Shown one piece after another: positions 1,372 through 58,004 of a stretch of 64,000 nt of DNA. Position numbers and translations under genes: made by a program. Position 1 is the first letter of the stretch. Each line of letters starts with the position of its first letter. The stretch is from an uncultured bacterium. GTDB taxonomy: Bacteria; Patescibacteriota; Minisyncoccia; Phycocordibacterales; GWA1-40-21. The DNA lies in contig CAIJUJ010000021.1 of NCBI GenBank assembly GCA_903823865.1, positions 6,732 to 70,731 on the forward strand, given 5' to 3'. Below the pieces are notes generated by a model. It worked only from the letters and a program-made list of their open reading frames with translations, searched no databases and was not told the DNA's origin.

Positions 1372-1563
1372 TTGTGCCAAGGGCCGGAATCTCTCCTTCA
1401 CCTTTCATTTCATCGCCACTCAATTCGGGCTAGGCACCAGTTCATTCACCCCGCAAGCTTGCGGGGTATCATTCCGCTGTTCTCGTCCGGACAGAAGCAA
1501 AGCAGTTTGCTTCCTCCCTCAAGCCAATTTTAAAAACACCAAATGTTGGTGTTTTTAAAATTG
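1372..1563 (-). repeat. tRNA-3'-matched structured element, core type D, after tRNA-Phe
   Basis: 17-nt direct repeat of tRNA 3' end (1372-1388 = 1561-1577); core nearly identical to 56989-57073. Confidence 0.85.
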
Positions 1564-2460: not shown

Positions 2461-2605
2461 TGTGCGAGTGGCGAGAATTGGCTATTACTTAGCCAGGTGC
2501 TTTTCCGCCTCACTTCGCTCGTATATAAAAGCCTTTCGATTCTCGCCCACAAGCAAAGCAGTTTGCTTGTTCACTCGAATTTAAAAACTAATCGTTTTTA
2601 AATTG
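2461..2605 (-). repeat. tRNA-3'-matched structured element, core type C, after tRNA-Gly
   Basis: 18-nt direct repeat 2461-2478 = 2604-2621; antisense arms 2535-2547 and 2572-2577 split by an ACTGCT-loop hairpin; core similar to 57266-57325. Confidence 0.85.
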
Positions 2606-2676
2606 TGCGAGTGGCGAGAATCGAACTCGCGCCCGATGCTTGGGAAGCACCAGTTCTACCACTAAACTACACTCGC
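2606..2676 (-). tRNA. tRNA-Gly(CCC)
   Basis: 71-nt cloverleaf; anticodon loop TTCCCAA; A at the discriminator. Confidence 0.92.
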
Positions 2677-2814
2677 CCGGTAGTAGAATTTGGCATCAAA
2701 AAGTTTTTCAACCAAATTTTTCTACAATTATCTATTCAACTATCAAACTACCTTATAACAACATAAACATCAATATATAACTTTTTAAAAACAATGCCAA
2801 ATTTCACTACGGGG
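2676..2814. mobile_element. MITE-like element with ~22-nt terminal inverted repeats
   Basis: cccggtagtagaatttggcat ... atgccaaatttcactacgggg; homologous to 6934-7071. Confidence 0.7.
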
Positions 2815-2823
2815 CTCACATGA

Positions 2824-15065: not shown

Positions 15066-15298
15066 CAAGAAATATCATGAAATGATATTTCGGGGAGAAT
15101 CGAAAGACGGAGTGAGCTTGGGTTGGGACCCAAGCGCAAGACCTGTGATAGTTTTATATGAGTGAAAGCGAAATATAAAACAGAACAGGTATACAGATTC
15201 TGTAAGAATCACGAAGTCCGTTTTCAGCAGAAAACGGGTGCGAGTCGGGGTCGAGAAAATTTGTGAGCGACGGCGAACAAATTATTCGTGACCGATTC
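15066..15298 (+). repeat. tRNA-3'-matched element, core type A with nested type-B module
   Basis: Hairpin, antisense ggggagaatcgaa, agacggag...ggggtcg...gtgacc, then gattc. Confidence 0.8.
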
Positions 15299-15312
15299 AC
15301 AGTATTATTAAT

Positions 15313-15396: not shown

Positions 15397-15713
15397 CAGA
15401 TTAAAAGTGACCCATTCCTTGGGTCACTTTTAATTTGTCAGGTGGGAATCGAAAGACGGAGCGCGACGGCGCGAGTCAGGGTCGCGAGATTTTTCAGCAG
15501 AAAAATACTTGTGACCGATTCCCTAATCTTGCTTACGTGTGGGAATCGAAGAACCTTGAGTATATTTTTGAGCATGTACCCATGTGAAAAAATACGAAAG
15601 GTGTACCGTCCATGTAATGGAAGATAAGCGAAGCGGTCCCACCGTTTCTTTAATTTTATTCGGGGTGGGACCCAAATAAAATTTTGTCGAAAAATACTTG
15701 TGACCGATTCCCC
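15397..15713 (+). repeat. Tandem tRNA-3'-matched elements (A, B, partial A) after tRNA-Leu(TAA)
   Basis: Antisense gtgggaatcgaa twice; aaaaatacttgtgaccgattccc twice. Confidence 0.85.
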
Positions 15714-15758
15714 AGTTTTAATTGATTTTCCTTCATTTTTCTGATATTTTATTGACAT

Positions 15759-16416: not shown

Positions 16417-16655
16417 CAGTAAGAAAACGCCGATAGGGCGTTTTTCTGTGCGCAGGAGAGGACTTGAAAGACGGACTGAGCAAAGGCGAAGGAGCCGGGG
16501 TCGCGCAAATTTTCAGCAGAAAATTATGCGTGACCAAGTCCTCTTGTGAAATAGAAAAAATACGAAGACTATACTGACCATGTAATGACCAAGATTCCTC
16601 TCCCGTGTCGTGTATTTAATTTGGGGTGGGACCAAAATTAAATACTCGTGACCAC
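16417..16655 (+). repeat. Tandem tRNA-3'-matched elements (A, partial B, partial A) after tRNA-Leu(TAG)
   Basis: Antisense ggagaggacttgaa; direct copies caagtcctct (16535) and tcctctcccgtg (~16596). Confidence 0.85.
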
Positions 16656-16752
16656 ATTCTATTTTATTTATGTTTTGACATTTAACCAATATTAATGTAT
16701 TGTCATTTCAGATTAAAAATTCGTACACCCAAAAAACAAGGAGGAACAAACT

Positions 16753-56901: not shown

Positions 56902-57117
56902 CGGCTGGCCGGAGTTTCTAAGATTTCGAGTCATGCTGGCCGGAGTTTCTCCCTCGACTAAAGCCTCGTCTTCACTCGGCTTTGTCTGGGCACCAGCTCA
57001 TTCACCTCGCAAGCTTGCGAGGTATCATTCCGCTGTTCGAATCCGGACGCAAGCAAAGCAGTTTGCTTGCTCCAGCCGCGCAAATAAAAATAACCACTTT
57101 CGTGGTATTTTTATTTG
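56902..57117 (-). repeat. tRNA-3'-matched element, core type D, after tRNA-Asp
   Basis: Perfect antisense tgcgcggctgg | ccggattcgaac split by the ACTGCT hairpin; two direct copies at ~56902 and ~56935. Confidence 0.88.
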
Positions 57118-57242: not shown

Positions 57243-57395
57243 TTCTTGTGTCGACGGGTGGAATCTGCTACTACATAGCCAGGTATTTTTCCACCTCGCT
57301 TCGCTCATACGGAAAAATCTTTCAATTCCGCCACGGAGTGAAGCAGTTCACTCCTCTCGCACTCGAATAAAAATGAATATTCATTTTTATTCTTG
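57243..57395 (-). repeat. tRNA-3'-matched element, core type C, after the CAT tRNA
   Basis: 23-nt direct repeat 57243-57265 = 57390-57412; hairpin ggagtga-actgct-tcactcc. Confidence 0.85.
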
Positions 57396-57520: not shown

Positions 57521-57775
57521 CTACTTGTTTAGATAGTGTTTTAATTGTTTATTTAAATATTTTCTTCCAGAACCACCTTTTAGAAATTTCTCTCTACCAA
57601 CCGCATCATCTATATTCAAATATGCTTCATAATAAACAAGTTTCCAGTTGGTTTTATCTTTTGTAGTTCTACACCCCTTTCCTCTTAGATGGTCAGTGAT
57701 TCTTTGTTTTAGATTTGATGAATATCCAATATAAAAACTCTTATCTTCATTTTGTAAAACATATGTATAATACAT
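57521..57775 (-). CDS. Stand-alone GIY-YIG nuclease (84 aa)
   Basis: MYYTYVL...FYIGYSSNLKQRITDH...LVYYEAY...A..RE.FLK; start reassigned. Confidence 0.9.
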   Translation of the reverse strand: MYYTYVLQNEDKSFYIGYSSNLKQRITDHLRGKGCRTTKDKTNWKLVYYEAYLNIDDAVGREKFLKGGSGRKYLNKQLKHYLNK

Positions 57776-57930
57776 TTGGTCATTATCACTTTTATACAAA
57801 AATAAATCAAATTTTTGGCCTGCCACGAGACAAAAACTACCTTGGCCGCGCAAAATAAATTGATTACAATTTATCGCCCGGCTCACGAAAAACAAAAACT
57901 ACCGATAAAATCAGTAGTTTTTGTTTTTCG

Positions 57931-58004
57931 TGGTTGCGGGGGCCCGAATTGCACGGACGTCTCCAGGTTATGAGCCTGGCGAATTACTGCTACTCTACCC
58001 CGCT
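57931..58004 (-). tRNA. Initiator tRNA-fMet(CAT), atypical
   Basis: 1:72 mismatch, GCGGGG acceptor, loop CTCATAA, encoded CCA, T-loop TGCAATT. Confidence 0.85.

Follow-up and report, generated by a model that had tools for sequence, protein, structure and literature searches.

Inserts with a split antisense arm behind tRNA genes of Patescibacteria: a candidate family of protein-less mobile elements

In a 64-kb window (64,000 nucleotides, the whole stretch of DNA analyzed here) of a Patescibacteria genome, the tRNA-Gly(CCC) gene is followed by an insert of about 145 non-coding bases, in which the 3' end of the gene recurs once in antisense and once in direct orientation. The first-pass annotation of this locus, made from the sequence alone, described an antisense arm split by a hairpin and offered three ideas for it: a bipartite guide, a two-state switch, or a tRNA mimic. 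We asked what this arm pairs with, whether the insert acts as RNA or as DNA, and how it came to lie behind the gene.

The unit behind tRNA-Gly and its counterparts

The genome that contains the window (G000) measures 677 kb, has 33% G+C, and is 96.8% complete. Fifteen tRNA genes lie in the window, with no further Rfam match; over the Gly trailer, a search of Rfam 15 with E-values up to 10 returned no notable match. On the minus strand, a palindrome, the split antisense arm, two hairpins, and the direct copy follow the tRNA-Gly(CCC) gene in this order (window 2461-2676):

2605..2676, minus strand: tRNA-Gly(CCC) gene, the target (ARAGORN, Rfam RF00005, and sequence); position 57 at 2622, 65 at 2614, 66 at 2613, 73 at 2606; CCA not encoded
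2578..2604, minus strand: P1, an A/T-rich palindrome of 11 bp that caps a long hairpin
2572..2577, minus strand: anti-acceptor arm, antisense to tRNA positions 71-66 (sequence comparison)
2547..2571, minus strand: P2, the 25-nt module, made of A, an 8-bp stem, the ACTGCT loop (2557-2562), and GG; it branches from the arm at 66|65
2535..2546, minus strand: anti-T arm, antisense to tRNA positions 65-54, with its end at 54
2495..2534, minus strand: body hairpin H3 of the class A body, which contains tandem G-A steps and ends in a GAA tip
2480..2494, minus strand: body hairpin H4, with a 5-bp stem and an N-GTA-N loop; its 3' edge adjoins the duplication
2462..2479, minus strand: direct copy of tRNA positions 57-74, with one change at 57

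The 25-nt module ends in GT in 115 of 147 modules and in GG in the Gly copy. P1 differs among copies, is almost missing in some, and behind tRNA-Gly(CCC) does not have the form of a consensus intrinsic terminator. Relative to shuffled sequences, the Gly insert region folds with a z of -6.4 as RNA and -8.6 as DNA. The insert is not an assembly artefact, since contigs from two further studies contain it (X5 2331-2852 with one difference; X6 and X7 in part). One X5 contig skips 2651-2814 (85% likeness) and possibly comes from a relative without the upstream element, a separate element that lies upstream of tRNA-Gly at window 2677-2815.

Three further units of this kind were mapped in the window:

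1374..1562, minus strand: Phe unit, tRNA-Phe(GAA); module 1491-1515 with ACTGCT at 1501-1506, anti-T arm 1480-1490, class B body; direct copy from 1393, with two extra nucleotides between 59 and 60
56903..57116, minus strand: Asp unit, tRNA-Asp(GTC); module 57047-57071 with ACTGCT at 57057-57062, anti-T arm 57036-57046, class B body; two partial direct copies, from 56949 and 56918
57248..57394, minus strand: Met unit, tRNA-Met(CAT); 7-bp hairpin 57335-57354 with ACTGCT at 57342-57347, anti-T arm 57321-57331, class A body; direct copy from 57265

The ACTGCT hairpins annotated behind Gly, Phe, Asp, and Met-CAT were thus recovered, with the stems given for them. The acceptor-side arm has decayed at Phe (three of seven positions match) and at Met-CAT (four of seven), and a decayed second head with ACTGCT at 1318-1323 lies 3' of the Phe unit. 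The loop had been described as constant. ACTGCT is indeed dominant, occurring in seven of the 11 first-position modules detected in the window genome, but the others read ACTACT, AAGTAT, AAGTCT, and TAGGAT. In addition, the 25-nt module is missing from four copies of this genome, those at Cys, Val(GAC), and two Leu genes. The module-less units behind Cys, Leu(TAA), and Leu(TAG) lie on the plus strand (window 15067-15312, 15398-15740, and 16418-16700, respectively); they are partly stacked and contain additional hairpins with GGGACCCA. A small GIY-YIG gene (window 57521-57930, minus strand) is situated 3' of the decayed head behind tRNA-Met(CAT) at 57931-58004; it is absent from G022 at the equivalent place.

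To see how the split behaves elsewhere, we compared 206 distinct tRNA and tmRNA genes from the window genome and the first 149 loci. A hairpin lies within 130 nt in 119 of them, a proportion that is not a frequency because most loci were retrieved by the hairpin itself. The hairpin patterns used for retrieval held no tRNA-specific letters, so the split register was free to vary. The T-side arm nevertheless starts 10 or 11 nt past the loop in 100 of the 106 copies in which it matched at at least 9 of 11 positions (the other 13 of the 119 fell below this threshold and were left aside). Where both arms are well matched, 66 of 73 copies show a net insertion of 25 nt. Among the 119 hairpin-bearing genes, 59 have two arms that match their own tRNA, whereas none of 2380 control pairings gave such a match to another tRNA. 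A random split among homologs, which the first-pass annotation had named among the outcomes contrary to its proposal, was thus not observed. The annotated position near 65/66 is right as to a fixed place; there are, however, two registers in near-equal use, 66|65 (as at Gly) and 65|64 (as at Phe and Asp), with 53 and 47 copies, and Met is ambiguous between them. These counts confirm that the fixed-split antisense arm behind tRNA-Gly is real and not due to chance.

A larger set yielded arms at 41 tRNA types plus tmRNA; two entries of this set are false calls from convergent tRNA genes. The module is missing in 22 of 169 arm-bearing genes, two of these again being false calls of this type. The exact 14-nt hairpin core occurs in 24 of 41 related genomes, and the reversed control gave one match. 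Among the 80 GTDB records listed with the hairpin, most have Patescibacteria titles, five are Elusimicrobia, and a few belong to others, with mis-binning possible.

The partner of the antisense arm

The first-pass annotation had the arm pairing either with the upstream tRNA or with the downstream copy, and when folded as RNA both conformers can be drawn. In 67 of 74 units, the fold of lowest energy has the arm paired with the upstream tRNA and lies a median of 11 kcal/mol below the fold in which the tRNA is held native. If the tRNA is kept in its native fold, the downstream copy becomes the partner of the arm in 52 of the 74 units; this helix is also foldable at Gly.

Sequence changes distinguish between the two partners. 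Of the 119 units, 84 have a clean register and 58 also a downstream copy, and positions 61-73 were compared. At the 58 positions where gene and copy disagree, the arm agrees with the gene in 55 cases, with the copy in one, and with neither in two. In the metagenome set, the arm follows the gene at 10 of 10 discordant positions and the copy at none, although a few of these loci are possibly common to the first set. At discordant positions the tRNA's own 5' strands pair with the 3' end of the gene in 50 cases, with the downstream copy in two, and with neither in one. The 55-to-1 result could partly reflect decay of the copy alone; decay of the copy would by itself mean that selection on a mimic has already gone.

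Positions outside 61-73 speak to the same question. Position 55 lies outside the duplication, and for rare T-loops that have C or G there (TCC or TGC) the arm carries the matching variant in six of seven cases, which shows that the arm reads the gene itself; for TTC T-loops, the arm has GAA in 202 of 203. At position 75, the 42 cases in which the gene does not have C and the arm is intact divide into 38 where the arm follows the gene, two where it follows CCA, and two where it follows neither. The arm is thus complementary to the gene or its precursor and not to the mature tRNA. We rejected a retroelement primer-binding site on this count and because a reverse transcriptase was found in one of five copy-rich genomes and not in G000. 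Mismatches of the G-T type number 36 in the arm versus 25 of the A-C type, which singles out no strand. In the tmRNA units at G000:C2:9502-10220 and L014, each downstream copy corresponds to the T-stem allele of the other genome, and each arm to its own gene.

The two duplicated segments have different limits. The arm ends at 54 and is not extended to 53 in 70 of 84 units. The copy starts at 57; positions 57-59 are exact in 75 of 86 copies when an insertion at 59|60 is allowed, compared to 276 of 1281 in the control. This insertion measures 0 nt in 39 copies, 2 nt in 23, 11-14 nt in nine, and 1 nt in four. The duplication of positions 57-76 amounts to 18-20 bp. An intact downstream copy was not found in 26 of the 84 units, mostly because of truncated copies or locus ends.

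These data bear on the tRNA mimic, in which the arm and the downstream copy form an acceptor/T-stem helix that is processed by RNase P/Z, the CCA-adding enzyme, and a synthetase. tRNA-like structures include the tRNA-like domain of tmRNA, mascRNA, and viral TLS. The insert resembles them in that arm and copy can be drawn as an acceptor plus T-stem helix of 12 bp from whose junction a side domain emerges. This arrangement has the geometry of a tRNA top half, with the module in the place at which the D/anticodon domain would attach. The native-held folds described above agree with this arrangement, and RNase P protein was found in four of five genomes. The inserts differ from tRNA-like structures in lacking a T-loop, a conserved 3' end, and covariation between the strands of the mimic. 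The arm changed with the copy at one of 58 and 0 of 10 discordant positions, and the copy is truncated, foreign, or not found in the 26 units mentioned. The T-loop is replaced by continued pairing and two hairpins, the split uses two registers, the module is missing from some arm-bearing genes, and neither ARAGORN nor Rfam made a call. The ACTGCT hairpin is moreover not tied to the acceptor/T-stem junction, because it also occurs in inserts in a D-loop and in a 23S rRNA gene, where this junction does not exist. We consider the mimic very improbable: the arm follows the gene, the mimic would have no T-loop, and the copy is often decayed.

An intron in the T-loop of the tRNA was rejected as well, given that the 5' strands of the tRNA pair with the upstream 3' end and hardly ever with the copy. 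One locus is a possible exception. Near position 2500 of L423 (minus strand), a tRNA-Ser(GGA) stops at 65 and runs straight into the module, and the acceptor 3' strand with CCA is found solely in the downstream copy; this may be a dead gene, an assembly artefact, or a case of splicing.

Folding and movement of the inserts

The body of the insert retains its shape while its sequence changes. Two-sided changes were found at 22 of 29 predicted pairs in the 24 class B bodies (90-91 nt) and at five of 10 pairs in the 34 class A bodies, in which MAFFT left H4 unaligned. The fold is under selection.

We used loop types to determine whether this fold is formed by DNA or RNA. GCGNAGC-type mini-hairpins are exceptionally stable in DNA while their RNA counterparts are far weaker, and GNRA and UNCG are common loops in RNA, according to PMC13037366. 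The 82 bodies contain 83 GNA triloops on 2-bp stems versus 34.8 in shuffled sequences (maximum 57); on the opposite strand there are 33 versus 15.7 (maximum 25). Tandem-GA mini-hairpins, counted in 52 bodies, number 27 versus 7.0 on the sense strand and 1 versus 0.8 on the opposite strand. RNA-type tetraloops are not enriched in the 82 bodies (GNRA 22 versus 24.4, C-UUCG-G 1 versus 1.0 in shuffles). In P1, which served as the control for RNA loops, GNA, GNRA, and UUCG all remain within the shuffle maximum. The excess of GNA triloops and tandem-GA hairpins without an excess of RNA tetraloops favors single-stranded DNA of the tRNA-sense strand. Against this weigh the smaller triloop excess on the opposite strand and the lack of a signal from mismatch polarity and from the replication strand. 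Folds of single-stranded DNA and of RNA are not reliably separable by comparative sequence analysis, as stated in PMC5737381; judged from these loop counts, the insert likely folds as single-stranded DNA of this strand.

The same data weigh on the two-state switch of the first-pass annotation. As a cis-acting RNA switch, the arm in a read-through transcript would invade the T-arm and acceptor stem and throttle tRNA maturation. The energetic preference for pairing of arm and tRNA agrees with such a switch, as do the tracking of the gene by the arm and the P1 at Gly that departs from the terminator consensus. Against it stand the DNA-type loops without RNA tetraloops in excess, the spread over 41 tRNA types with no amino-acid pattern, the patchy presence at one orthologous gene, and the tandem and horizontally moved copies (see below). 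We regard the switch as quite improbable; more simply, pairing of arm and tRNA in a read-through RNA would be a cost that is avoided by early folding or cleavage.

The occupation of one orthologous site provides a record of gain and loss. The arrangement of tRNA-Gly(CCC) and glutaredoxin was present in 22 of 26 genomes searched, and the insert fills the site in four of these 22. In empty relatives, the sequence directly 3' of tRNA-Gly resembles the flank beyond the direct copy in the window (62 of 71 positions in G003, 56 of 74 in G004). The filled sites are scattered on the lepA tree, a one-gene tree, and require four changes. A tree constraining the three Gly copies with the same body to a clade was rejected with a p-AU of 7e-6, again for lepA only. 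Between G000 and G016, the insert is conserved at 117 of 125 positions (94%) and the tRNA at 70 of 72, compared to 50 of 77 in the flank and 84% in lepA. The sister genome G003 has an empty Gly site and a different tRNA-Gly allele (54/72), whereas the tRNA-Gly of the distant G041 is identical to that of G000 (72/72). The insert family has been gained or lost and has moved horizontally.

Tandem arrays of units are present at L013, L264, and L270. In the two-contig assembly of G018, an identical tract of 137 nt, from the module to the 59|60 insertion, occurs at two Arg tRNAs that have a common T-arm and a different acceptor and P1; in G024, an identical body is found at Glu and Ser, where an assembly join is possible. 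An origin of P1 from the host terminator, by duplication upon insertion, was rejected as a rule, because a near-identical palindrome follows the copy in eight of 67 cases, mostly tandem stacks. No bias for a replication strand was observed (55/82 versus 68/98, p 0.75). A joint that removes or circularizes the Gly insert was not found in four contig sets; contigs drop rare forms, so the missing joint is not evidence of absence. Among 133 viral loci, none contained the full 25-nt module under two search patterns, and the pattern matches in these loci look like chance.

At L214:981-1110 (G001), the current tRNA-Gly(CCC) allele is trailed by the 3' half of the window-type allele, a sign that whole tRNA alleles overwrite one another. 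In an alternative account, old inserts hitchhike with whole tRNA alleles by homologous recombination after uptake, with template switching at the quasi-palindrome matching the arm passively and no dedicated enzyme. The identity of the tRNA-Gly genes of G041 and G000 and their difference from sister G003 show whole alleles crossing lineages, insert and tRNA allele are common to G000 and G016, some downstream copies carry the sequence of another allele (tmRNA, G000 versus G001), and the search for a linked enzyme found none. Hitchhiking leaves unexplained the conserved, covarying body of fixed length, the existence of sister inserts that target D-loops, and a junction that falls sharply at 56|57 in 41 tRNA types; template switching would also tend to delete the 25-nt module, which is retained. 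We judge this account rather unlikely.

A mobile-element reading, candidate enzymes, and known systems

The reading that we favor, with slightly better than even confidence, is a family of mobile elements of about 110-200 bases that encode no protein, fold as single-stranded DNA, and carry an arm that reads the gene. It brings together the fixed anatomy, the duplication from 57, the coupling of arm and gene, the covarying stems, the DNA-type loops, and the scattered filled and empty alleles, all of which were observed. Such elements would come and go behind tRNA and tmRNA genes and would travel as single-stranded DNA. The antisense arm would pair with positions 54-76 of its own tRNA gene as a target guide, and an enzyme supplied in trans is predicted to insert the element at the T-loop, at 56|57. 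The element would supply the replacement 3' end by a crossover located from 56|57 to about 60|61, and the old 3' end would be displaced downstream and then decay. The 25-nt module may protrude as a side hairpin roughly one helical turn (11-12 bp) away from the arm's base and serve as a protein-binding or strand-marking site, not as a mimic of the D/anticodon domain; in the copy, the A-hairpin-G insert at 59|60, which is smaller, could have the same strand-marking or enzyme-binding role. Spread from cell to cell would probably occur as single-stranded DNA via natural transformation, aided by tRNA homology.

A more tentative extension is that insertion retargets itself: the element would copy the gene it has entered as a new two-part guide, and pairing over some 20 bases would bring a small nuclease, acting in trans, to a fixed point. 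This point would be 56|57 in the T-loop, or the D-loop in a sister family, and one body plan could thereby reach nearly all tRNA genes, tmRNA, and possibly the ends of other conserved genes. The bipartite guide is the nearest of the three original ideas to this proposal, but the evidence points to DNA as its target.

If the arm is a DNA guide, these inserts would represent a natural, base-pair-programmed, site-specific insertion with a cargo-free substrate of 150 bases and a fixed cut in tRNA genes; they would also form a new class of mobile DNA, found in the most streamlined bacteria, and might offer a lead for programmable integration. On a conservative reading, mobile DNA overwrites the 3' ends of many tRNA and tmRNA genes in Patescibacteria. 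Island finders will be misled by the duplicated tRNA tails, and where hairpin-rich "ncRNA" is called behind tRNA and tmRNA genes of Patescibacteria, the call likely reflects a DNA structure. With the junctions at 54, 56|57, 59|60, and 65|66 mapped, the mechanism is testable with short oligonucleotides.

We searched for a gene that could supply the enzyme. The 559 flanking ORFs contained no recurring mobile-type neighbor or cargo gene, and no Y1 gene when the window genome's own Y1 was the query. No integrase or cargo ORF lies between arm and copy, where the spacing is 57-322 nt in the 58 units and 42-254 nt in 39 metagenome units. An autonomous version with an internal gene was not found among the units with a mapped copy in either set; 33 of 72 metagenome units have no copy. 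A GIY-YIG gene was in range at one locus of the first set and at three metagenome loci. The window genome encodes six small GIY-YIG genes, one Y1 gene, and one tyrosine recombinase, none consistently linked to units; one of the six GIY-YIG genes is near a unit and one is flanked by NTS-like repeats.

PF01541, PF01797, and PF00589 were profiled over 42 genomes and PF00078 and PF02371 over five, and no required partner protein emerged from these families in these genomes; the lack of a linked enzyme counts against the mobile-element reading. Copy number, taken as a crude count of exact 14-mers in 41 related genomes that are not independent of one another, correlates weakly with GIY-YIG (rho 0.35) and Y1 (rho 0.32) genes and not with tyrosine recombinases (0.00). 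Y1 was not found in G002, G010, and G018, which are 95-97% complete and have four to eight copies. Tyrosine recombinases are present in 39 of the 42 genomes; none was found in G024, the richest genome with 22 copies (93% complete), which has a single GIY-YIG match in a long frame. ComEC and DprA, both common proteins, occur in five of five genomes, all of them copy-rich. Our leading guess for the enzyme is a small GIY-YIG single-strand nuclease or an HUH (Y1) enzyme. At G000:C8:37000-38050, a GIY-YIG gene with NTS-like palindromes lies directly after a ComEC match and before another ORF. This last ORF resembles what we take to be the usual C-terminal domain of ComEC.

The tyrosine recombinases bring in another alternative, a self-folding att site of the integron attC or CTXphi type. 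CTXphi and IMEX attP are folded single-stranded att sites with the enzyme in trans. An excised single-stranded circle would pair the arm with its own copy of 57-76, and a host Xer-type tyrosine recombinase would swap one strand with the tRNA gene. From the mechanism known for such sites, the order gene, palindrome, inverted arm, body, and direct copy would be the expected remnant of a one-strand exchange. Bulged modules are present on both arms (25 nt at 65|66; 2, 11, or 14 nt at 59|60 in 31 of 86), and most genomes have a suitable recombinase. The inserts resemble attC and CTXphi/IMEX attP in their inverted arms with extrahelical bases, in favoring one strand, and in the enzyme in trans, which is predicted for the inserts; the integron integrase is specific for one folded strand of attC, as reported in PMC5737091. 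In contrast to folded att sites, the arm reaches 54-56, past the element's own copy, and mirrors the variants of the chromosomal target there; the fold has four hairpins and is branched, the target is a tRNA gene instead of attI or dif, and there is no linked recombinase. The richest genome yielded none, copy number does not follow recombinase number, and a single Xer-like enzyme would need to accept more than 40 different arm sequences. We find the att site unlikely.

Returning to the mobile-element reading, we compared the inserts with other known systems. No description of the family was found in the literature searched, which comprised listings and the openings of abstracts from outside the subscription journals. 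Every known family considered fails at least one defining feature. Integrase-less remnants of tRNA-targeting islands are known as CIME. Islands in tRNA and tmRNA genes with the T-loop as sublocation form a class described in 10.1101/2020.11.02.365908, and the inserts share with these tyrosine-integrase islands the restored gene upstream, the displaced 3' fragment from the T-loop downstream, tandem accretion, and the use of tmRNA. Unlike the islands, the inserts measure 110-200 nt, contain no integrase or cargo, include an antisense copy of the gene end, and have a conserved folded body, with the same body classes at 41 tRNA types.

IS200/IS605 elements (IS608, ISDra2) and REP/RAYT act through hairpins in single-stranded DNA and choose their target by pairing with a short DNA guide. 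The proposed mechanism of the inserts is like theirs in both respects; the guide, however, would have about 20 nt in two parts and not 4 nt, the inserts leave a duplication of 18-20 bp whereas IS200/IS605 insert without target duplication, and no Y1 gene is linked. The NTS/SRM repeats are hairpin repeats acted on as single-stranded DNA by Ssn GIY-YIG nucleases, with a tie to natural transformation (PMC11893778); the mode of action proposed for the inserts is similar in this regard. The inserts do not flank GIY-YIG genes and their arms are matched to the target, unlike NTS/SRM; tRNA has no occurrence in the Ssn/NTS paper (PMC11893778).

Other inserts with the ACTGCT hairpin occur at different sites. 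At L002:1330-1650 (G040:C2, minus strand), a sister insert in the D-loop of tRNA-Thr(TGT) contains an antisense copy of the D-arm and the ACTGCT hairpin; its body is of a different type, and the duplication extends from the D-loop to the 3' end. The hairpin and the body type of the D-loop insert are also found inside a 23S rRNA gene (L025 near 1514; G040:C7, minus strand). In two 5'-end versions (L105 near 781 and L026 near 1501), a copy of a tRNA 5' end followed by the ACTGCT hairpin lies upstream of an intact tRNA-Ser or tRNA-Leu; in L105, the copy includes the region upstream of the tRNA.
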